A stretch of 64,000 nt of DNA from Spirochaetota bacterium (GTDB taxonomy: Bacteria; Spirochaetota; UBA4802; UBA5550): contig JAFGBT010000006.1 of the NCBI GenBank assembly GCA_016933025.1, positions 155,078 to 219,077 on the forward strand, given 5' to 3'. The translations under genes were made by a program, and so were the position numbers. Numbering within the stretch: position 1 is the first letter of the stretch; each line of letters begins with the position of its first letter. Of the stretch, positions 2,721-54,684 are shown one piece after another. A model generated the notes under the pieces. That model was not told where the DNA came from. It saw nothing but the letters and a program-made list of their open reading frames with translations, and did not search any database.

Positions 2721-3048
2721 TGCAGCTTCCTTCCATTCATTGAATTATTAAGGATTCCTTTTTATATCGAACATTCGTTTTAAATAAAATACAAACCAAC
2801 CGGCCGGTTCGTCAACTTTTTTATATAATTTTATTATATATAATTATAAGATTATACACCATTCATGATTGATAAATAGTATAATACACATAGCAGGATA
2901 ACAATCCGCGACCATCAGGGGTAATATTGTGAATAGATTCCTCTGCATCCCTGCAAGGCCTCTCCTTCATAAAAGTTGTTTACAAAAATCACTTCAGTGG
3001 AAACCTTCCTAATGATATCTGCACAGAAAAACTGACAAGGAGTTCTAC
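2721..3048. promoter_or_regulatory. AT-rich (about 25% GC) divergent promoter region between the GMC oxidoreductase and crotonase genes; contains the perfect palindrome ACCGGCCGGT (2799-2808) and TATAAT-like boxes
   Basis: Sharp GC drop in a 60% GC context; flanked by divergent gene starts; palindrome read directly. Confidence 0.4.
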
Positions 3049-3825
3049 ATGTCAACATGCAACTATACGGTTGATGAGCAGGGCGTCGCCTTCATGATCA
3101 TCGACAATCCGCCGATGAACGCCCTGAGCACCCCCGTGATCAACGATATCCGCGAATGCGTTCAGAAGGCGCTCGGCGACAGCGCCGTGCGCGTCATAAT
3201 ATTCACCGGCGCGGGGCGGGCCTTCATCGCCGGAGCCGACATCGGCGAATTCAAGGACCTGAACACGCAGAGGGCCGGGAGCGACTGGCTGAAAAACGGC
3301 CAGGACCTTCTCAACCTCGTGGAAAACGCCGACAAGCCGTTCATCGCCGCGATCAACGGGTTCGCGCTTGGCGGCGGCACGGAGATGGCGCTCGCCTGCC
3401 ACATCCGCCTCGCCGATGAAACGGCCCAGATGGGCCTTCCGGAAATCAAGCTCGGGATAATTCCCGGCTTCGGCGGCACCCAGCGCTCCCCCCGACTCTT
3501 CGGCACGGGACGGGCATACGAGCTCATCCTCTCGGGCAATTTCATCAGCGGGAAGCTGGCCGCCGAATACGGACTGGTCAACCGCTCGACCCCGAAAGGC
3601 ACCGTGGTCGCCGAGGCCAAAAAGCTTGCGGATGCCATCGCGCTCCGCGGCCGCCCCGCTGTCAGGACCGCCATGGACGTCATCCGCAGGGGTATCACGA
3701 TGAATCTCGCCGACGCGCTTACAATGGAGCGCGACGCATTCGGGGCGCTCTGTGAGACAGAAAACAAGCGTGAGGGCGTGGCCGCGTTTCTCGCCAAGCG
3801 GGACCCGGTTCCGAAGGACCTGTAG
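3049..3825 (+). CDS. enoyl-CoA hydratase/isomerase (crotonase family)
   Basis: Crotonase motifs FIAGADI, AAINGFALGGGTEMALACHIRLA; AAGGAG RBS. Confidence 0.85.
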   Translation: MSTCNYTVDEQGVAFMIIDNPPMNALSTPVINDIRECVQKALGDSAVRVIIFTGAGRAFIAGADIGEFKDLNTQRAGSDWLKNGQDLLNLVENADKPFIAAINGFALGGGTEMALACHIRLADETAQMGLPEIKLGIIPGFGGTQRSPRLFGTGRAYELILSGNFISGKLAAEYGLVNRSTPKGTVVAEAKKLADAIALRGRPAVRTAMDVIRRGITMNLADALTMERDAFGALCETENKREGVAAFLAKRDPVPKDL

Positions 3826-3835
3826 GATAATGGCA

Positions 3836-3935
3836 CTGGGCTGTCTCATAAGCCCCCTAAATCCCCCGAAGGGGGACTTTATGGAGCCTAAGCAACTGAA
3901 AAGCCCCCCTCTGGGGGGTTTGGGGGGCGGCGACG
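3836..3935. repeat. G/C-tract modular hairpin repeat, copy R1 (modules CCCCCGAAGGGGGAC and AAGCCCCCCTCTGGGGGGTTTGGGGGGC)
   Basis: Near-identical modules recur at 7744-7872 and in six or more further intergenic spacers. Confidence 0.6.
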
Positions 3936-3978
3936 CAAAAAACTTTTATGACAGCCCCACGCCGCATATCATATTCTC

Positions 3979-6035: not shown

Positions 6036-6641
6036 TCAGACCTGTGTCATAAGGTACATTATGCGACTGGCCCTGTCAGCCTTGACTTCCGACATCTTCT
6101 GCATGAGGTATGGTGTGATGCTTGTCCTGCCTGCCTCCAGCGCATTCGCGTCAATCTGCCTGAGCACATCGATGATCAGCGTATCTTCCCAGTTCAACAT
6201 TATGCTTACCGCATTTGCCGGCGGCATGTTCACCATCTTGTCGGCGAGCACCTTCACGTTCTGGCGGTAGCCCGAATAACGAGTCTTCTCCTGGTCTAAT
6301 TTCTTTTTCTCGAGGTCCAGCCCCTTGCGCACCTCTTCCATCTTTTCTTTCTGAGCGTCGAGATCCTTTTCTCTTTCAGCGATCAGAGCCTCACGCTTGT
6401 CCAGGCTCTCAACCCGCTCCGCAAACTTCTGTTTCTCCTTTTCGAACTCCTCGCGCTCAACAAGCGACGGCTCGTCGCCACCAGCCTCGGTCACGAGCTC
6501 CGGCTCGCCCCTGAAGCGGTTTACATACGATGAGATGTCGAAGAGACCGATGTAATCGAGCCAGAAAAGGCCGAACCCGGATATAAAAAATATCAGCAGA
6601 ATCAGGTAAAGAATCTTTGCCCTGTTTGATATGTTTCTCAT
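6036..6641 (-). CDS. YlxF/FlbB/MotE-like flagellar-operon protein (TM anchor, coiled coil, MgtE_N-like C-terminal domain)
   Basis: Hydrophobic N-terminus, long charged coiled coil, C-terminal LIIDVLRQIDANALEAGRTSITPYLMQKMSE; position after fliJ. Start chosen at the internal Met with GGTGGAGG RBS (the ORF track extends to 6683). Confidence 0.5.
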   Translation of the reverse strand: MRNISNRAKILYLILLIFFISGFGLFWLDYIGLFDISSYVNRFRGEPELVTEAGGDEPSLVEREEFEKEKQKFAERVESLDKREALIAEREKDLDAQKEKMEEVRKGLDLEKKKLDQEKTRYSGYRQNVKVLADKMVNMPPANAVSIMLNWEDTLIIDVLRQIDANALEAGRTSITPYLMQKMSEVKADRASRIMYLMTQV

Positions 6642-7258: not shown

Positions 7259-7717
7259 CTAAGCCGATTCCCTCTTTCTCATAGCGTATATTTTCTGATT
7301 GGTCTCGTCATTCTCCTTATTCAGCTCCCTGTTGACCTCGTATGCGTGCTGAGCCTGTTTCCGGTCCCTGAGCTTTTCCACGACCTTGCGGGCGCGCGAG
7401 GCCTCGACCAGCCGGGACCTGACCTCCTGGATCTGCGGCTCCATTCCCCTGATCCTCTCTTCGGCCGTGTCAATGGCTCTCAGCGACACGTCCACGAACC
7501 GCTCGAACAGGATGGCCTCGCCGGATGAAAATGCTCCACGCTTCAGCCTTTCGCCGAAGAGAGACTTCTGCTCCTCAATCCGGCGTCTGAGTTCCGCCTG
7601 TCTTTCGCGCTCGCGGTTCTGGACGCTCAGTATCCTTGCGAGCTCATACTGGATCTCCCGTTCACGGGCCTCCCGGATATTGAGCAGTGTCTGGAGCTTG
7701 AACTTGAATTTTTTCAT
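7259..7717 (-). CDS. fliJ: flagellar export chaperone FliJ
   Basis: 152-aa charged coiled-coil protein immediately downstream of fliI; FliJ-like N-terminus KFKLQTLLNIRE. Confidence 0.7.
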   Translation of the reverse strand: MKKFKFKLQTLLNIREAREREIQYELARILSVQNRERERQAELRRRIEEQKSLFGERLKRGAFSSGEAILFERFVDVSLRAIDTAEERIRGMEPQIQEVRSRLVEASRARKVVEKLRDRKQAQHAYEVNRELNKENDETNQKIYAMRKRESA

Positions 7718-7743
7718 GATACTATCCTGCCCACTTCAGCTTG

Positions 7744-7872
7744 CTCACAAGCCCCCTAAATCCCCCGAAGGGGGACCGCCCTCACCCCCTTCCCCTCTCC
7801 CACAGGGAGAGGGGAGAAGGTATCATAGACATGTTACTAAAGCCCCCCTCTGGGGGGTTTGGGGGGCATCGC
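7744..7872. repeat. G/C-tract modular hairpin repeat, copy R2, inserted in the fliI-fliJ spacer
   Basis: CCCCCGAAGGGGGAC, CCCCTCTCCCACAGGGAGAGGGG, AAAGCCCCCCTCTGGGGGGTTTGGGGGGC; shares over 60 nt with R1. Confidence 0.6.
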
Positions 7873-7904
7873 AACAGGGAGCGCCCCGCCTTCAAAAGCG
7901 TACA

Positions 7905-9305
7905 TCATCGTACTATCCGCGCGAATGCCGGCGTCCTGGAGACGATATCCGGCCTCGCTGACGGCCTCTTTTCTGAAAACATGTCGATCAGCCTCTTCAC
8001 GATAGATGCGTATTCGTCCTGCTCGTATATTCCCTGCCGCAAAAAAGCATTCATCGTATCCATCATTTCAAGTGCCCTGTCGACGGCCGGTACCGAACCC
8101 CGCGCGTACGCGCCCAGGCTGATCTCGTCCTCGTGCTCGGTGTAGGCCGCGAGGAGTTCGCGGAACTTGTTCGCCGCCTCCATGTGCTCAGGGGTAACGA
8201 CGTCTTTCATGCAGCGGGATATGGAGGCGAGCACATCGACCGCCGGGTAATGCCCCTTATGCGCCAGGCGGCGCTCCAGAACGATGTGCCCGTCAAGTAT
8301 GCTTCGGGCGTGATCGGCGATCGGCTCATTCATGTCGTCGGCCTCTACCAGGACCGCGTAAAATCCGGTGATGCTGCCGCCATCGGCGATGGTTCCCGCC
8401 CGCTCCATCAGCTTCGCCATGAGCGAAAAGGTTGATGGCGGATAACCGCGCATCGAGGATGGCTCGCCGGCGGCGATGCCCACCTCCCGCTGGGCCATGG
8501 CAAACCGGGTGATCGAGTCCATCAATAAATTCACGTGGAGTCCTTTATCGCGAAAAAACTCCGCGATTGCGTGGGCCAGGTAGGCCCCGCGTATCCGCAT
8601 CATGGCCGGCTGGTTGGACGTCGCCACGACTACGACCGTGTTCTTCAGGCCCTCCGGCCCCAGCTCCTTCTCGACGAAATCTTTAACCTCGCGGCCGCGC
8701 TCTCCGATGAGCGCCACCACATTCACGTCCGCGTCGGTAAACCGGGATATCATGGCTATGAGCGTAGATTTGCCGACGCCTGAACCGGAGAATATACCTA
8801 TACGCTGTCCCCGTCCCACCGTGTTGAGCCCGTCGATGGCCCTGATCCCGACCGAGAGGGGCCTGTCGATGACCACGCGCTCGAGCGGATTTATCGGCTC
8901 GCTGGTGACCGGATACCGCTCCTTCGTAAAGATGCTGCCCCGGCCGTCAAGCGGTTCGCCCACGCCGGAAATGACCCTGCCGAGGAGCTCCTCCCCAACC
9001 GGGACCATGAGCGCCGTACCGGCAGCGACGACGTCGGCGCCCGGGACGATCCCCTTCATGTCACCTATCGGCATGAGAACGACCCTGTTCTTGTTGAAGC
9101 CGACGACCTCGGCGTGGAGGTATCCGCCCCGGTCGAGCCGTATCTTGCAGAGCTCTCCGTATTCGACATCGGGACCGATCGACTCGATGGTGAGGCCCAC
9201 CACACGCTCGACCCGGCCGGTATACTTGATGGTCTCCAGCTCCTCAATGATACCCCTGTATTTCGAGAGGATATCGACCTTTTCATGTGGCAGGATTTTT
9301 ATCAT
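7905..9305 (-). CDS. fliI: flagellum-specific ATP synthase FliI
   Basis: Walker A GSGVGKST; T3SS ATPase conservation throughout; 466 aa. Confidence 0.95.
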   Translation of the reverse strand: MIKILPHEKVDILSKYRGIIEELETIKYTGRVERVVGLTIESIGPDVEYGELCKIRLDRGGYLHAEVVGFNKNRVVLMPIGDMKGIVPGADVVAAGTALMVPVGEELLGRVISGVGEPLDGRGSIFTKERYPVTSEPINPLERVVIDRPLSVGIRAIDGLNTVGRGQRIGIFSGSGVGKSTLIAMISRFTDADVNVVALIGERGREVKDFVEKELGPEGLKNTVVVVATSNQPAMMRIRGAYLAHAIAEFFRDKGLHVNLLMDSITRFAMAQREVGIAAGEPSSMRGYPPSTFSLMAKLMERAGTIADGGSITGFYAVLVEADDMNEPIADHARSILDGHIVLERRLAHKGHYPAVDVLASISRCMKDVVTPEHMEAANKFRELLAAYTEHEDEISLGAYARGSVPAVDRALEMMDTMNAFLRQGIYEQDEYASIVKRLIDMFSEKRPSARPDIVSRTPAFARIVR

Positions 9306-9335: not shown

Positions 9336-9385
9336 GGCGCCCTCTGTTAGGGGCGGGTTTAAACCCGCCCCTAACAGAGGGCGCC
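9336..9385. repeat. 50-bp perfect palindrome in the fliH-fliI spacer (GGCGCCCTCTGTTAGGGGCGGG TTTAAA CCCGCCCCTAACAGAGGGCGCC)
   Basis: Read directly; 22-bp arms with a TTTAAA centre; lies 7 nt after the fliH stop and 30 nt before the fliI ATG. Confidence 0.7.
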
Positions 9386-11328: not shown

Positions 11329-11417
11329 CAGTTATTCCATCCTAAAGCCAGGTGGATATCATACACTATATTATCGGCCTCACCCTCAAATTAACATTAT
11401 TAATATATCAAAGTCAA

Positions 11418-11480
11418 ACCAAAAATAGCCCCCCTCCGGCCTGCGGCCACCTCCCCCCATTAATGGGGGGAGGACGGGAA
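11418..11480. repeat. G/C-tract hairpin element in the fliF-fliG spacer (CCTCCCCCC ATTAAT GGGGGGAGG palindrome plus an AGCCCCCCTCCGG module)
   Basis: Read directly; related to the modular repeat family. Confidence 0.5.
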
Positions 11481-11485
11481 GGGGG

Positions 11486-13186: not shown

Positions 13187-13348
13187 ATAGTCCTCCCGAG
13201 CCCGCCCTGAACAGGGCCCCTGCCAAAATAAATCTCACCAGAAGCAAAGACAATGCGACATAATACAGCTTATCAGGACAAAAAAAAATGTCAATTAATT
13301 TTTCTAAAAATAATAATAAAAATATACATGAAAATTAATTGGATAACA

Positions 13349-13392
13349 GGCGGGCTGTAGGCGAGGTCACGTGACCTCGCCTACAGCCCGCC
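13349..13392 (-). terminator. 44-bp perfect palindrome (GGCGGGCTGTAGGCGAGGTCAC GTGACCTCGCCTACAGCCCGCC) followed on the minus strand by a U-rich tract; candidate fliE terminator; member of the GAGGTCACRTGACCTC palindrome family
   Basis: 8 nt downstream of the fliE stop; an AT-rich tract follows in the minus direction. Confidence 0.55.
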
Positions 13393-13399
13393 TCGCCTA

Positions 13400-14988: not shown

Positions 14989-15032
14989 GCGCCCCGGGAG
15001 GCGGGGTCTTGTGACCCCGCCTCCCGGGGCGC
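14989..15032 (+). terminator. 44-bp perfect palindrome (GCGCCCCGGGAGGCGGGGTC TTGT GACCCCGCCTCCCGGGGCGC) followed by TCATCTTTTTTAT on the + strand
   Basis: Read directly; terminator-like geometry on the + strand although the nearest upstream + strand gene is about 9 kb away. Confidence 0.5.
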
Positions 15033-15961: not shown

Positions 15962-15997
15962 GGGATCGCTCAAACCTATGCGAGGTCACGTGACGTC
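15962..15997. repeat. imperfect palindrome AAACCTATGCGAGGTCAC GTGACGTCGTATGGGTTT between convergent genes; GAGGTCACGTGAC core family
   Basis: 15 of 18 arm positions pair; shares its core with the 13349 and 18124 palindromes. Confidence 0.45.
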
Positions 15998-16038
15998 GTA
16001 TGGGTTTGCGCGACCCCACCCTCGCACCCGAATCCATT

Positions 16039-18123: not shown

Positions 18124-18163
18124 GCGCATGTGAGCGAGGTCACATGACCTCGCTCACATGCGC
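18124..18163 (+). terminator. 40-bp perfect palindrome GCGCATGTGAGCGAGGTCA CATGACCTCGCTCACATGCGC, 25 nt after the blc stop, followed by a T8 run
   Basis: Read directly; shares the GCGAGGTCACRTGACCTCGC core with the 13349 palindrome. Confidence 0.55.
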
Positions 18164-21429: not shown

Positions 21430-22587
21430 CTATACGTCGTAGCACCCGATCTTCCTCGATATGACAATCCGCTGGACTTCCGAGGTGCCCTCGCCGATGG
21501 TGAGAAGCTTGTAGTCGCGAAAGAAGCGCTCGATATTGTATTCCTTCATCAGGCCGTAGCCGCCGTGGAGCTGCACCGCCTCGTCGACCACGCAGCCCAT
21601 CACCTCAGAGCAGTAGAGCTTGGCCATGGCAGCCTCCTTGCCGAAGGGCCTCCCGGTATCCTTGAGCTTGCAGGCCTTGTAAAGGAGATTGCGCGCGGCC
21701 TCGATTTCCGTGGCCATGTCGGCCAGTTTGAAGGCGTTCACCTGAAACGTGGAGATCGGCTTGCCGAACTGCTTGCGCTCCTTCGCGTACTTCATCGCCA
21801 GCTCGTACGCGCCCTGGGCCCCGCCGAGCCCCATGGCAGCAATTGCCAGCCTGCCGTTGTCCAGGGTCTGAAGCATCTGGTGAAACCCCTCGCCCCGCCT
21901 TCCGAGAAGGTTCTCCTCCGGGACCCGGCAGTCGTCGAAGTAGAGCTCGCCGGTGTCAGAGGCGCGCCACATCATCTTTCCGGTCATCTTTTTCTGCGCG
22001 AAGCCCTTCGTCCCGTTCGGCACCAGGATGCAGGAGACCTCCTTCTTGCCGTCCGGCTTGGTCCCGGTGATGGACTGCACCGTGCAGACGCCCGCCATCC
22101 TGCTGGTCGAGTTTGTGATGAATATTTTGGAGCCGTTAATGACCCACTCGCCGCTCTCGAGTTTCGCGTTCGTTTTGCTCGCGCCCGCGTCCGAGCCTGC
22201 CTCCGGCTCGGTGAGGCCGAAGGAGGCCAGGATCTCTCCCCTGCAGAGCCGCGGGAGCCACTCCTCCCTCTGCTTCTCGTTCCCGTAATAGTAGATTGGC
22301 CCGATGCCGAGGGAATTGCCGGCCGCCACCGTGGCGCCGTGGGAACCGTCTATCCGGCATATCTCCTCAACGGCGACGCAGTAGGAGAGATAGTCCATGC
22401 CGGCGCCGCCCCACTTCTCCGGGACGTATATGCCGAAAAGGCCCATAGACGCCATCTTCTCCGTTATCTCGCAGGAGAACTCCTCCTTTTCGTCGAGCTC
22501 CCGCGCCTTCGGGCCGATCTCCTTCTCCGCAAACTCGCGCACGTTGTAGCGGAGCATCTTCTGCTCGTCGTTAAGCCAGAAGTCCAT
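21430..22587 (-). CDS. acyl-CoA dehydrogenase (catalytic Glu present: IGEGTSEVQ)
   Basis: Full ACAD architecture, 385 aa; C-terminal YEGT-type motif. Confidence 0.9.
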   Translation of the reverse strand: MDFWLNDEQKMLRYNVREFAEKEIGPKARELDEKEEFSCEITEKMASMGLFGIYVPEKWGGAGMDYLSYCVAVEEICRIDGSHGATVAAGNSLGIGPIYYYGNEKQREEWLPRLCRGEILASFGLTEPEAGSDAGASKTNAKLESGEWVINGSKIFITNSTSRMAGVCTVQSITGTKPDGKKEVSCILVPNGTKGFAQKKMTGKMMWRASDTGELYFDDCRVPEENLLGRRGEGFHQMLQTLDNGRLAIAAMGLGGAQGAYELAMKYAKERKQFGKPISTFQVNAFKLADMATEIEAARNLLYKACKLKDTGRPFGKEAAMAKLYCSEVMGCVVDEAVQLHGGYGLMKEYNIERFFRDYKLLTIGEGTSEVQRIVISRKIGCYDV

Positions 22588-22610: not shown

Positions 22611-22715
22611 TTCTTGACAATCCCCCTAAATGGGGCCGCCCCAAAAGTCTCCTGCGACGCCCCCCCAACCCCCCGGAGGGGGGCTTGTGAGACAGCCCCG
22701 TTGGGGGGCGGGACG
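22611..22715. repeat. G/C-tract modular repeat copy R3 (inverted orientation relative to R1)
   Basis: The reverse complement contains GGCTGTCTCACAAGCCCCCCTCCGGGGGGTTGGGGGGGCG, matching the start and second module of R1. Confidence 0.55.
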
Positions 22716-25710: not shown

Positions 25711-25750
25711 CCCCCCCTCTCACCGTGGGAGAGGGGGTTGGGGGGGTGAA
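25711..25750. repeat. short G/C-tract repeat copy (CCCCCCCTCTCACCGTGGGAGAGGGGGTTGGGGGGGTG)
   Basis: Matches modules of R2 and R7. Confidence 0.4.
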
Positions 25751-25753
25751 GCA

Positions 25754-26929
25754 TCATTTCCCTCCGTACTTCCTTATCAAGTCCTTGGCGATCAATATCC
25801 GCTGGATCTCCGACGTTCCCTCGCCGATCTCGCCAAGCTTGGCGTCGCGGTAAAGCCGCTCCACCGGGAACTCCTTGATGTACCCGTACCCGCCGTGGAC
25901 CTGGACCGCCATGCTCGAAATCTGCGTCGCCGCTTCGGAGGCCCAGACCTTGGCCACGGAGGCCAGCACGGCGGCCTCGGGGTCCTTCATCTGCTTGGCC
26001 CACGCCGCCTGATAGATGAGGAGGCGCGCCACGTCTGTCTGAATCATCATGTCCGCGATCTTGAATGAAATCTCCTGATAGCGGTTTATCGGCCTGCCGA
26101 AGGCCTTCCGCTCCTTGGAGTACTTGTTTGCCAGCTCCAGGCACTTCGCCGCGATCCCGAGGCACACGGTGGCCATGCCTATCCTGCCGTACTCGAGGGT
26201 CTGCATCGCCTGGATAAAGCCCCTCCCCACCTCGCCGAGAACGGCGCCCGCGGGCACCTCGCAATCCTCGAAGATTAGCTCTGCCGTGGGCGAGCCGCGG
26301 AAGCCCATCTTGTCGAAGGGCTTGCTCACGGAAAACCCCTTCGTGCCCTTGTCAACCAGGAAACAGGTAACGCCTGCGCCCGGCCCCTTCTCCCGGTCAT
26401 TGTAAGCGAAGACCAGTGCCACGTCCGCGATCGTCGCGTTGGTTATGAAGGTCTTGGTGCCATTGATTACCCACCGGTCCCCCTTCTTCACGGCGTTCGT
26501 CTTGATGGAGGCCGCGTCGGTGCCGGCCTCCGGCTCGGTTAGACCGAAACAACCTAAGATCTCGCCCTTGATGATGCCGGGTATATACTTCTTTTTCTGG
26601 GCCTCGCTGCCGAAGAACCGAAGCGGCATGCCGAAGAGGCCTGACGAGGCCCCGCAGGAAAGGAAAGTCGAGGCGCACGCCTTGGCAACCTCCTCCCCCG
26701 CTATCGCCTGGCTGATCAGATCAAGGTCGGTGCCGCCGTACGCCTCCTCGTGGCCCATGCCGAGATAGCCGATATCCGCGAGCTTTCTGATGTTCTCCTT
26801 GATGAGTTTGTCAACGTCATCATGGGACGCCTGGTCGAGCATCTGGGCGCGCGGCTCGATCTCCTTCACGCAGAATTTTACAAAATTTTCCTTTATTGAT
26901 AACTGCTCGGATGTCAGATCGTAATTCAT
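25754..26929 (-). CDS. acyl-CoA dehydrogenase (catalytic Glu present: IGEGTSEIQ)
   Basis: Full ACAD architecture, 391 aa. Confidence 0.9.
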   Translation of the reverse strand: MNYDLTSEQLSIKENFVKFCVKEIEPRAQMLDQASHDDVDKLIKENIRKLADIGYLGMGHEEAYGGTDLDLISQAIAGEEVAKACASTFLSCGASSGLFGMPLRFFGSEAQKKKYIPGIIKGEILGCFGLTEPEAGTDAASIKTNAVKKGDRWVINGTKTFITNATIADVALVFAYNDREKGPGAGVTCFLVDKGTKGFSVSKPFDKMGFRGSPTAELIFEDCEVPAGAVLGEVGRGFIQAMQTLEYGRIGMATVCLGIAAKCLELANKYSKERKAFGRPINRYQEISFKIADMMIQTDVARLLIYQAAWAKQMKDPEAAVLASVAKVWASEAATQISSMAVQVHGGYGYIKEFPVERLYRDAKLGEIGEGTSEIQRILIAKDLIRKYGGK

Positions 26930-26975: not shown

Positions 26976-28127
26976 TTAGAACATGCTCAGAATCCGGGAT
27001 ATGATAAAGCGCTGGATTTCCGACGTGCCGCCGCCTATCTGCGCCAGCTTGGCGTCGCGGAGGAACCGCTCGATCGGATAATCGTGGATGTAGCCGTATC
27101 CGCCGAAGACCTGGGTCGCCTCGCTGGCGGCCTTCACGCCCCAGTCGCCGACCAGCGCCTTGGCGATGGAGGTATGCATGTGGTTAAGGGGCTTCCCTGA
27201 ATCTTTGTCGAAAGCGACACGATAGACCACCATCTTCGCCGCTTCCTTTATGATCCTGAGGTCCGCCAGCTTGTGCTGGATCGCCTGAAACGAGCCGATC
27301 GGCTTGTCGAACTGCACCCGCTCCTGCGCGTACTTCGTGCACTCCTCTATCGCGAACTGCATTCCGCCAACGAAGGGGGAGAGGAGCGAGCTCCGGTCCC
27401 AGGAGAGCGTCTCATGGGCGTACTCCATCCCCTTCCCGACCTCGCCGATCAGGTTCTCCTCCGGGACCTCGCAGTTGTCGAGGAACACCTCGGAAGTCGA
27501 CGAGGCCCGTACGCCCATTTTGTGAAACGGCTTGCCCGTGGAAAAGCCTGGGAACCCGCGCTCCACGATGAAGGCGGCGATGCCGTTATGCTTCAGCTTT
27601 TTATCGATCGTCGCGTAGACCACGCATATGTTGCAGACCGGCGCGTTGGTTATGAAGGTCTTGGAGCCGTTGAGCATCCAGCGGTCGCCCTTCTTGACCG
27701 CTGTGGTCGACATTGCGGCTGCGTCGGAACCCGACCCGGGCTCGGTGAGACCCATGCAGCCTATCCACTCGCCGCTTGCAAGCTTGGGCACGTATTTCTT
27801 TCTCTGAGAGTCGTTGCCCTGCTTGTACAATGTGTCGGTGCAGAGATAGGTGTGTGCGCCCAGCGCCAGCAGGTGCCCCTGGTCGACGCCGGCGTGGCCG
27901 AGGGCCTCCCCCGCGAGGCAGCAGGTGACGACATCCGCACCAGAGCCGCCGAGCTCTTCAGGGAACGGAAGCCCCAGAAGCCCCATCTCCCCCAGTTTGC
28001 CCCAAACTTCAGGTGAAAACTCCGACTTGAGATCGGCCTCCTCGACGAGCGGAACGATCTCCTTCTTCGCGTACCGGTACACCGTCTCTCTGAACATCAA
28101 TTGCTCTTCAGTAAACCCAAACTCCAT
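26976..28127 (-). CDS. acyl-CoA dehydrogenase-like subunit with Gly replacing the catalytic Glu (IGGGTSEIQ)
   Basis: ACAD fold; motif substitution read directly; start at the internal ATG with AGGAGG RBS. Confidence 0.85.
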   Translation of the reverse strand: MEFGFTEEQLMFRETVYRYAKKEIVPLVEEADLKSEFSPEVWGKLGEMGLLGLPFPEELGGSGADVVTCCLAGEALGHAGVDQGHLLALGAHTYLCTDTLYKQGNDSQRKKYVPKLASGEWIGCMGLTEPGSGSDAAAMSTTAVKKGDRWMLNGSKTFITNAPVCNICVVYATIDKKLKHNGIAAFIVERGFPGFSTGKPFHKMGVRASSTSEVFLDNCEVPEENLIGEVGKGMEYAHETLSWDRSSLLSPFVGGMQFAIEECTKYAQERVQFDKPIGSFQAIQHKLADLRIIKEAAKMVVYRVAFDKDSGKPLNHMHTSIAKALVGDWGVKAASEATQVFGGYGYIHDYPIERFLRDAKLAQIGGGTSEIQRFIISRILSMF

Positions 28128-28184
28128 GCGCTCCTCCTTTGTAATACGGTCCGGGACGGACAACGCGCTCCGTCACCAACCCGG

Positions 28185-30240: not shown

Positions 30241-30352
30241 TCTTTTCTCTTAAGCCCCCTCCGGGCGTTGCACTGAACGGTTCAACAGGCTTGTCCTGAG
30301 CTTGCCGAAGGGCTCACCACAGGCCTGTCGAAGTGGGGTTTGGGGGGATGGT
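30241..30352. repeat. G/C-tract modular repeat copy R5
   Basis: AAGCCCCCTCCGGG ... GTGGGGTTTGGGGGGATGG modules. Confidence 0.5.
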
Positions 30353-33155: not shown

Positions 33156-33175
33156 GATGATTCTCCTTGTAATAC

Positions 33176-33272
33176 CTCACCCCCTTCCCCCTCTCCTCAA
33201 AGGAGAGGGGGAGAAGAAGAATATCGCATTCTTCTCCTCCCCTTCTTCCTGTGGGAGAAGGGGCCGGGGGAT
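33176..33272. repeat. G/C-tract modular repeat copy R6 (CCCTCTCCT CAAA GGAGAGGG and CCCCTTCTTCC TGTG GGAGAAGGGG hairpins)
   Basis: Read directly; same module style as R2 and R7. Confidence 0.5.
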
Positions 33273-33277
33273 GATGT

Positions 33278-37865: not shown

Positions 37866-37905
37866 ACCCTCACCCCTGCCCCTCTCCCACGGGGAGAGGG
37901 TACAC
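37866..37905. repeat. G/C-tract repeat copy R7 (CCCTCACCCCTGCCCCTCTCCCACGGGGAGAGGG)
   Basis: Near-identical to the middle module of R2. Confidence 0.4.
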
Positions 37906-54509: not shown

Positions 54510-54684
54510 GCCCCCCCCCCAAATCCCCCGGAGGGAGACTTGCCCTCACCCCCGACACTGAGTGACAGGATGTCACGAATGCAGCAGCGTACACGGATGT
54601 ACAAGCTGCTGCCTCCCAGAGGGAGAGGGGAGGAGTTGTCAGATACATTTTCTTATAGCCCCCCTCTGGGGGGCTTGGGGGGAT
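54510..54684. repeat. largest G/C-tract modular repeat copy (R8) with nested hairpins (GTGACA GGA TGTCAC; CAGCAGCGTACA...TGTACAAGCTGCTG; AGCCCCCCTCTGGGGGGCTTGGGGGGA)
   Basis: Shares CCCTCACCCCC, AGAGGGAGAGGGGA and the terminal module with R1 and R2; ends at the coaE stop. Confidence 0.55.

Follow-up and report, generated by a model that had tools for sequence, protein, structure and literature searches.

The stretch analysed here, called the window throughout, comprises 64,000 nt of contig JAFGBT010000006.1 from a Spirochaetota bacterium. It carries a minus-strand flagellar operon with fliF, fliG, fliH, fliI and fliJ together with a large acyl-CoA/ChsH2/thiolase-type degradation cluster, and between the genes stand nine G/C-rich repeats, which we describe in terms of three sequence modules, M1, M2 and M3. 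We consider the nine sites to be copies and mosaics of a small non-coding mobile DNA of the BoxC/PIT/TM_ECO ("intrastrand triplex motif") class, and we give this explanation as a whole, including its proposed origin from elements that carry a DUF559 nuclease gene, a probability of roughly two in three.

A reading made from the letters of the window alone (the sequence-only reading) had listed nine repeat sites in 64 kb, always intergenic, and the repeats were found at every one of them. The M1 core CCCCCGAAGGGGGAC has four window matches at no more than 2 mismatches, against a mean of 0.29 in shuffled sequences; the 28-nt M2 AAGCCCCCCTCTGGGGGGTTTGGGGGGC has four at no more than 3 mismatches and the 23-nt M3 CCCCTCTCCCACAGGGAGAGGGG four sites, both with 0 in the shuffles. 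On a gene map derived from GC content at third codon positions (GC3) and checked with Pfam, 9/9 sites lie in intergenic gaps. The element is present in 9 of the 37 gaps of at least 40 nt and makes up about 17% of the intergenic DNA, and 42 of the 119 G/C runs of at least 5 nt fall in the non-coding part, which is 9.3% of the window. Copies in both orientations, also inside operons, had been claimed and were found. The quoted repeat translations (SPLNPPKGD and KPPSGGFGG) are correct, and several mechanical open reading frames (ORFs) run through the repeats, which explains spurious ORFs of the window. Recurrence outside the window, singled out beforehand as the point on which the family would stand or fall, proved to be wide, and the modules are intergenic there too.

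In each unit one hairpin arm consists only of pyrimidines and the other only of purines, and a third tract mirrors the arm next to it. Where the arms are asymmetric, this tract is a mirror copy in nine cases and a direct copy in one. A search written after the published ITxF rules returned 12 triplex-type motifs from the window, every one of them intergenic, and 0 from 30 Markov-1 random sequences. An alignment of 95 oriented M2 copies from the window and public genomes was also prepared. M1 reads GCCCCC TAAAT CCCCC GRA GGGGG AC, and the reverse complement of M2 reads GCCCCCC AAA CCCCCC GGA GGGGGG C. The three modules of the earlier reading do recur, but they are not independent, because M1 is a diverged inverted M2 and one unit design is shared; in its canonical form the element is therefore M1-spacer-M2, an inverted doublet. 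Both units are almost invariant in 28 complete doublets from at least 20 genomes, while the spacers keep their length class (21-27 or 39-61 nt) and are free in sequence. Two unit types occur, the clade-specific all-G/C M1/M2 and a BoxC-type M3 that is nearly as in E. coli, and they are arranged as solo units, as inverted doublets folding to a long hairpin and as nested units (Table 1). Of the nine sites, only five fold better than shuffles (z -3.6 to -7.3), which qualifies the earlier statement that each module is a GC hairpin; the other four have no excess stability.

Table 1 Repeat sites and other features of the window (dG, folding free energy; z, score against shuffles; G4, G-quadruplex).
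Feature	Positions	Strand	Composition	Setting and folding
Complete doublet A	3838..3957	+	M1-spacer-M2 with outer inverted repeat, GGGCTGTCTCAT (3838-3849) / ATGACAGCCC (3948-3957)	Flanked by enoyl-CoA hydratase gene stop (3825) and GNAT gene start (3979); single long hairpin, M1 paired with M2, closed by GGGCUGUC/GACAGCCC; dG -67 kcal/mol, z -5.7
M1 unit of A	3852-3877		GCCCCC TAAAT CCCCC GAA GGGGG AC; then 25-nt spacer	
M2 unit of A	3901-3928		AAGCCCCCC TCT GGGGGG TTT GGGGGG C	
Composite B	7739..7873	+	M1 7751-7776; BoxC-type M3 7779-7820 nested in spacer; M2 7840-7867	Between fliI (7905-9305, minus) and fliJ (7259-7717, minus); long hairpin like A, dG -83.9 kcal/mol, z -4.2; canonical G4 motif 7779-7801
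Mosaic	11428..11485	+	M2 5' half AGCCCCCCTCCGG; inserted unit CCTCCCCCC ATTAAT GGGGGGAGG; third tract GGGAAGGGGG	Between fliF stop (11486) and sigma-28-like fliG promoter; triplex-type motif 11450-11485; z -3.7
Rearranged copy	22620..22701	mixed	M1-like remnant CCCCCTAAATGGGGCCGCCCC 22622-22645 plus; M2 22659-22686 minus, directly joined to left outer repeat GGGGCTGTCTCACAAG 22684-22699 minus	Folds no better than shuffles, z -0.8
Degenerate solo M3-type unit	25711..25749	+	CCCCCCCTCTCAC CGT GGGAGAGGGGG TT GGGGGGGTGA	Fills the gap from acyl-CoA dehydrogenase gene stop (25754) to the ribosome-binding site of a MaoC-type hydratase gene; canonical G4 motif 25727-25746; z -1.1
Split M2 (direct sequence reading)	30253..30349	+	AAGCCCCCTCCGGG, 73-nt insert with arms ACAGGCTTGTC/GACAGGCCTGT, GGGGTTTGGGGGG	z -1.0
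Inverted doublet of M3-type units	33175..33274	.	CCTCACCCCC TT CCCCCTCTCC TCAAA GGAGAGGGGG; central hairpin; CCCCTTCTTCC TGT GGGAGAAGGGG CC GGGGGATGA	Long hairpin at 33170-33277, dG -71.8 kcal/mol, z -7.3
Solo BoxC/TM_ECO-type unit	37866..37901	-	Minus strand CCCTCTCCC CGT GGGAGAGGGG CA GGGGTGAGGG	Flanked by BKACE-family gene stop (37918) and enoyl-CoA hydratase gene start (37844); canonical G4 motif 37867-37888; z -2.0
Composite, paralogue of B	54511..54683	+	M1-like 54511-54539; M3 unit with ~59-nt interruption, CCCTCACCCCC 54546-54556 ... CTCCCAGAGGGAGAGGGG 54613-54630; M2 54656-54683	Between convergent genes; z -3.6 to -3.9
Insert inside M3 of the paralogue of B	54557-54610		GTGACAGGATGTCAC and hairpin GCAGCAGC...GCTGCTGC	
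Perfect 50-nt palindrome	9336-9385			fliH-fliI spacer
Sigma-28-like promoter	11371-11378 and ~11395-11410	minus	TTTGAC ... GCCGATAA, the latter at 11371-11378	Upstream of fliG
Second palindromic family	13348-13393, 14998-15019, 15977-15998, 18131-18152		Around GAGGTCACGTGACCTC; 13348-13393 a perfect 46-nt palindrome	Intergenic
Paralogous acyl-CoA dehydrogenase genes	21430-22587, 25754-26929, 26976-28163			One degradation cluster

The intrastrand triplex motifs were set out as a class by Holder et al. in 2015, with TM_ECO as the motif formerly called BoxC or PIT element (PMC4666352). TM_ECO has the pattern CCCTCNCCC N3-6 GGGNGAGGG N3 GGGNGAGGG; E. coli K-12 holds 23 copies, all intergenic, with five as heterotypic inverted pairs, and 3,610 copies were counted across 262 proteobacterial genomes, while 143 TM copies are given for Enterobacter asburiae LF7a (PMC4666352). 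As a single strand the E. coli sequence forms a triplex in vitro by circular dichroism (CD) and nuclear magnetic resonance (NMR), not a G4, and the triplex went undetected in vivo, while PIT/BoxC, found to be without promoter or terminator activity, was tied to local variability (PMC4666352). With the second loop relaxed to 3-5 nt, this pattern has two exact matches in the window, at 7779-7813 and at 37867-37900 on the minus strand, and 0 in 100 shuffles; the same two units miss the strict N3 pattern by 1-2 nt because the window stems are 10 nt long. The units at 33175-33274 and 25711-25749 are diverged versions of it. From these matches M3 is, judged by its letters, a member of the known BoxC class in a new phylum, and the M1/M2 doublet is a clade-specific variant. 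The likeness extends to E. coli DNA itself, since 4,860 of the 5,426 complete genomes of E. coli have unannotated intergenic DNA that matches the M3 segment 7776-7824 (84-90% identity), with at least 80% of the query covered in 3,878 of the 4,860.

The shared order is pyrimidine arm, loop, purine arm, short loop and mirror purine tract: positions 7779-7814 read on the minus strand as CCCCTCTCCC TGT GGGAGAGGGG AAG GGGGTGAGGG, and E. coli copy #1 reads CCCTCTCCC TGT GGGAGAGGG CCG GGGTGAGGG. Also in common are the exclusively intergenic position, the solo units and inverted doublets and the association with local variability, and the M1/M2 doublets are heterotypic, like the pairs of TM_ECO type A and type B in E. 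coli. Work on BoxC/PIT is reportedly due to Bachellier et al. in the 1990s and to Hoyne and Maher in 2000 and 2002, and TM_ECO is reportedly absent from Salmonella. However, the window stems have 10 nt rather than 9 and the second loop 3-5 nt, and the units of the window stand in a spirochaete, not in one of the Proteobacteria for which TM_ECO was described. The M1/M2 type (C6 N3 G6 TTT G6), the outer inverted repeats and the clade restriction are absent from the 2015 account, which also gives no link to a mobility gene (PMC4666352), whereas window-type units bracket DUF559 genes.

For the distribution of M2, we scanned one genome per species for the exact pattern and obtained 84 stretches, almost all from metagenome-assembled genomes of uncultured Spirochaetota ("Leptospirales") with a local GC content of 35-60%. 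Matches of the M2 25-mer outside Spirochaetota (L054, L067, L069 and L085) lie inside long ORFs and were judged to be coding coincidences. M2 has 0 matches in viral contigs, and the M3 pattern with a 10-nt stem recovered 112 viral-contig stretches in which a sharply bounded unit of 36-41 nt sits between unrelated flanks. Identical copies of the window genes were found only in Logan sample SRR13394437, and the best FliI match in the genome collections has 88% identity. Among the relatives, M2 also stands in frame inside giant FG-GAP/RHS-like ORFs of more than 1,400 aa (L036 1417-1441, L057 7579-7603 and L035 1526-1550, the last with two tandem units), where it adds roughly SPPNPPEGG. This recalls the Rickettsia palindromic elements, which are in-frame palindromic elements, but the window has no coding insertions and sequence and structure are unrelated. 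The literature searched held nothing on the M1 and M2 sequence strings and nothing specific on small dispersed cyanobacterial repeats or on MITEs (miniature inverted-repeat transposable elements) of spirochaetes. One contig with several M2 units, L075, also has Rfam matches at gathering score to DUF3800-VI RNA and Bacillaceae-1 RNA (6121-6175 and 6373-6437).

Comparison with orthologous loci showed that the window copies are insertions. The modules are missing from all 80 orthologous flagellar loci compared (FliI identity 88-54%). The window has 187 nt between fliI and fliJ, where most relatives have 3-14 nt and the closest one has 8 nt, and at the fliF-fliG junction the relatives have other GC hairpins or none. 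The fliI-fliJ junction itself is occupied in two of them, L087 and L088, by other inverted doublets of an M3-like kind. The nested and split units of the window also speak for insertion. The elements were inserted into intergenic spacers, including those of the flagellar operon and of the fatty-acid/steroid-type degradation cluster, after the split from the nearest sampled relatives. Composite B and its paralogue share 84% identity over 70 nt, spacer included. Short-read contigs of the same organism end inside A (~3879) and inside B (~7773), so the repeats explain contig breaks in its short-read assemblies.

In an AT-rich relative a larger element of 175-215 bp surrounds the doublet and has a terminal inverted repeat of 18 bp, CAATGTCATTAAGTTAAG; this element was inserted into GC-rich hairpins and has flanking direct repeats of 10-11 nt in four of six pairs. 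Bacterial MITEs such as Correia, ERIC, RUP and Nezha are likewise shorter than 200 bp, non-coding, intergenic and able to form a long stem-loop when transcribed (PMC11602168). The terminal inverted repeats and flanking direct repeats of the AT-rich relatives add to the resemblance, as does a probable origin by deletion from a gene-carrying parent. The differences are that the putative parent has no recognisable transposase, that conservation is higher in the subterminal units than in the outermost repeats, and that the window is without visible target duplications.

The elements might instead be cis-acting structural modules kept for a host function, such as mRNA 3'-end protection, attenuation, protein binding or H-DNA/G4 effects, and not selfish insertions. 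A good part of this idea had been contained in the sequence-only reading, which offered a structured RNA module (stabiliser or attenuator), and as a property of the family it was not borne out. The closest relatives lack the elements at the orthologous junctions, both orientations occur inside the window operons, and the copies are nested, split and decayed. Rfam gave 0 matches at gathering score on the window, with sub-threshold microRNA-hairpin noise at E < 1, and no match on the units in the flanks of the DUF559 genes described below; a tRNA scan was empty. The class of intrinsic terminators was set aside, as terminator-like sites are not enriched (13 vs 8.4+/-2.8 and 11 vs 12.1+/-3.7 in shuffles). 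Only weak matches overlap the elements in the transcribed orientation, where the elements have no U tract and hence no canonical terminator signal, and fliJ and other genes downstream of elements require read-through. For E. coli, PIT/BoxC has been reported without promoter or terminator activity and without a triplex in vivo (PMC4666352).

Some observations do favour selection by the host. Genomes that range from 35 to 60% GC keep the exact M2 25-mer and a near-exact M1 between which the spacers diverge, the hairpins are very stable, and M2 shows an orientation bias. The stop-to-stop ORF test used for coding was dropped for GC-rich loci, where it is uninformative because the repeats extend spurious ORFs, and was redone on AT-rich loci only; among the AT-rich M2 loci (within L002-L085, GC no more than 0.47) that lie between tandem genes, M2 is antisense in 17 and sense in 2 (p = 7e-4). 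Canonical G4 motifs, defined as four runs of at least three G on the same strand, separated by loops of 1-7 nt, are also present, and three of the five in the window lie in M3-type units (Table 1). The suggestion that the G-tract arrays form G4 structures therefore keeps its formal motif for the M3 units, but not for M2, which has only two G6 runs; each of its G tracts stands beside a complementary C tract. On balance we regard a conserved host function as improbable for the family.

The name REP/MITE-like family, which had also been proposed, fits the kind of element, since the repeats are intergenic, hairpin-forming, mosaic, nested and absent from the orthologous sites of relatives, but the repetitive extragenic palindromic (REP) class does not fit. 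Short intergenic palindromic units, mosaic clusters and inverted doublets in the form of long hairpins are shared with REP and bacterial interspersed mosaic elements (BIMEs) and with the REPIN-RAYT system, in which RAYT is the REP-associated tyrosine transposase. Conserved units around a free spacer occur in REPINs as well (PMC3116915, PMC3337134). A single protein gene flanked by its own repeats also follows the logic by which RAYTs were identified. However, the unit alignments have no GT[AG]G head, such as the GTAG of REPs; the units begin with a C tract or CCCTCA, and their homopyrimidine/homopurine arms have a mirror third tract. A tblastn search with E. coli RayT through the window and through 2.37 Mb surrounding 95 copies of M2 and 131 of M3 gave no match at E <= 1, with limited sensitivity, and Y1_Tnp is not among the 25 most frequent Pfam families of the 107 ORFs neighbouring M2 copies. 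The gene flanked by the units is a PD-(D/E)xK nuclease of the DUF559 family, not a Y1 HUH transposase. It is therefore very improbable that the family is a REP/REPIN family mobilised by a RAYT of the IS200/IS605-type Y1 transposases.

The candidate partner gene came from a Pfam screen of the 107 ORFs beside M2 copies, which returned four small DUF559 (PF04480) genes, one GIY-YIG gene and no transposase. When all ORFs of the 84 M2 loci (600 kb around 95 M2 copies) were clustered, no transposase was recurrent. All DUF559 genes in the repeat-selected loci stand between units, which are a reverse-complement M2 and an M2 in L047 (gene at 66-428), an M1 and a reverse-complement M1 in L039, whole doublets on both sides in L044 and L046, and units 17 and 12 nt away in L075. 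In two viral contigs recovered with M3, BoxC-type units form true inverted repeats around DUF559, with the complementary loops TGACGCG/CGCGTCA. The bracketed genes belong to a DUF559/Vsr-like family (E 1e-30 to 1e-35) and encode about 120 residues; the DUF559 profile matches PDB 3HRL ("endonuclease-like protein") and, weakly, the mobile-intron homing endonuclease domain 3R3P (E 3e-4).

To approach the association from the protein side, we recovered 20 viral-contig loci with the DUF559 profile and applied a strict hairpin finder within 220 nt. Of the 20 loci, 10 have pyrimidine/purine hairpins on both flanks and 15 have them on one flank or both, compared with 1 of 620 ORFs from unselected loci and 8 of 879 ORFs from M3-selected loci as controls (Fisher p ~7e-16 and ~8e-14). 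The finder requires pure pyrimidine arms and a second loop of no more than 6 nt, and it misses many DUF559-flanking units, whose arms contain one purine or whose second loop is itself a small hairpin, which makes the quantitative test conservative. By eye, units were seen in 17-18 of the 20 loci, and several contigs end inside a unit. Among bacterial homologues of the spirochaete DUF559 protein that were chosen only for long contigs, 6/6 are bracketed; in L305 an inverted pair of the window's M1 with one base changed stands around DUF559, and L307 has an M2-type pair. Most close DUF559 homologues lie on very short contigs (0.5-2 kb), as expected if the gene is embedded in assembly-breaking repeats.

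Several observations on these nuclease loci stand beside the association. In the viral loci L283-L285, L288-L291, L293 and L299 (GC ~0.7), a conserved GAAC-N7-GAAC direct repeat precedes the DUF559 element, which we take to resemble an alphaproteobacterial SOS box, and many of these contigs end 30-50 nt past the DUF559 gene. L043 has a small GIY-YIG nuclease ORF (2987-3352) 23 nt from an M2-containing element, and thus a second type of small nuclease beside the repeats.

E. coli K-12 has a DUF559 gene of its own, ycjD, with TM_ECO #9 at 168 nt downstream. The annotated 3' end of ycjD is a BoxC-like half unit (L281, E. coli K-12 1,351,040-1,351,460), and a duplicate of its C-terminal coding end, GAATATTCTCCAGCACCGTCTCC, lies ~100 nt downstream, past the half unit. 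Repeat insertion appears to have remodelled the end of this gene. In the literature searched, Caulobacter VsrA is the one DUF559 member with a published function, a Vsr-like nuclease treated as repair-type (PMC12907096), and according to an independent survey DUF559 is over-represented in genes that have inverted repeats at their flanks (PMC9881135); no paper in that literature ties DUF559 to BoxC or repeat elements.

Since the same units bracket DUF559 genes in related and unrelated bacteria, the doublets are most likely gene-less derivatives of DUF559-carrying elements, probably produced by deletion in the manner of MITEs. In AT-rich doublets the first ~22 nt of the spacer resemble the inner left end of the DUF559 elements. 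We propose that the DUF559 nuclease would act on its own units and copy the doublets in trans, possibly by cleaving a target hairpin, followed by repair-mediated copying or by insertion at a staggered cut. The window copies would be transcribed within polycistronic mRNAs and form very stable hairpins that do not terminate transcription, and these hairpins may alter mRNA decay and translational coupling. A wider version of the proposal is tentative, and we hold it at a little under even odds: DUF559 genes would be the coding cores of widespread, undescribed tiny selfish elements with triplex-type hairpin termini, each lineage recognising its own unit, while their gene-less derivatives would be the BoxC/PIT/TM_ECO of enterobacteria, where ycjD is the resident gene, the G/C-rich triplex motifs found in other phyla and the window's M1, M2 and M3.

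A number of points weigh against this reading. The window itself has no DUF559 gene and, apart from the missing target duplications, shows a clear outer inverted repeat only in copy A. Action of DUF559 on the units is put forward as a proposal only, and we know of no transposase that consists of a 120-residue PD-(D/E)xK nuclease alone. The 20 viral DUF559 loci form ~11 related groups and are therefore not fully independent. The M2 orientation bias could reflect selection at the RNA level, for example against the hairpin-UUU orientation, or strand-specific insertion, and a DDE transposase that works in trans would be in keeping with the ~10-nt direct repeats at the flanks in AT-rich relatives. 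For E. coli, no transposase or integrase remnants and no link to mobility genes were reported near BoxC, and no triplex in vivo (PMC4666352).

These points lead to the main competing explanation, in which DUF559 would be a homing-type selfish gene that invades the spacers of pre-existing doublets, while doublets and solo units spread otherwise, through an unidentified DDE transposase in trans or by recombination or replication slippage at the hairpins. Terminal inverted repeats with ~10-nt direct repeats are typical of DDE-type MITEs, the weak profile match to the homing endonuclease 3R3P points in the same direction, the homology between doublet spacers and the inner end of DUF559 elements fits insertion as well as deletion, and a GIY-YIG ORF also lies beside one copy. 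Against it, no transposase family recurs in the 600 kb around the M2 copies, solo BoxC units have no spacer to invade, and unit sequences differ from one DUF559 lineage to another, which points to recognition of the units themselves by their cognate nuclease. We consider an invading gene unlikely and prefer the origin of the doublets from DUF559-carrying elements.

With the window repeats the BoxC class reaches into Spirochaetota, and copies have clearly been gained at orthologous sites. In E. coli, BoxC/PIT/TM elements have been on record since the 1990s and, to our knowledge, they have been given no origin, no mobilising activity and no function. The 2015 survey covered thousands of BoxC/PIT/TM copies in hundreds of genomes and found no mobility gene nearby (PMC4666352). 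The small DUF559 nuclease, YcjD in E. coli K-12, offers a testable candidate partner for this repeat class that was not proposed in the literature searched. If the proposal is true, it would explain a common orphan repeat class, give a role to a large family of unknown-function "endonuclease domain-containing" genes, and account for the local genome instability and the assembly breaks linked with triplex motifs.

The interrupted M3 of the paralogue of B holds an insert with its own hairpin (Table 1). Long inserts in the flagellar spacers of L091 and L115 have repeated ACATCCTGTC motifs beside CCCTCACCC tracts, and these inserts and that of the window may represent a further repeat family. A second palindromic intergenic family of the window is unrelated to the elements described above, and a related sequence, GGCGGGGTCACGTGGCCCCGCC, lies in the fliH-fliI gap of L087. 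The fliH-fliI spacer of the window has a long perfect palindrome of its own; at this junction the relatives have different long perfect palindromes (e.g. L086), followed by a conserved AATGAGACATAACGT just before fliI. The sigma-28-like promoter upstream of fliG is conserved in many relatives, and fliF and fliG are therefore not simply co-transcribed. Finally, the three acyl-CoA dehydrogenase genes of the degradation cluster are paralogous, with ~70-76% nucleotide identity over long stretches.

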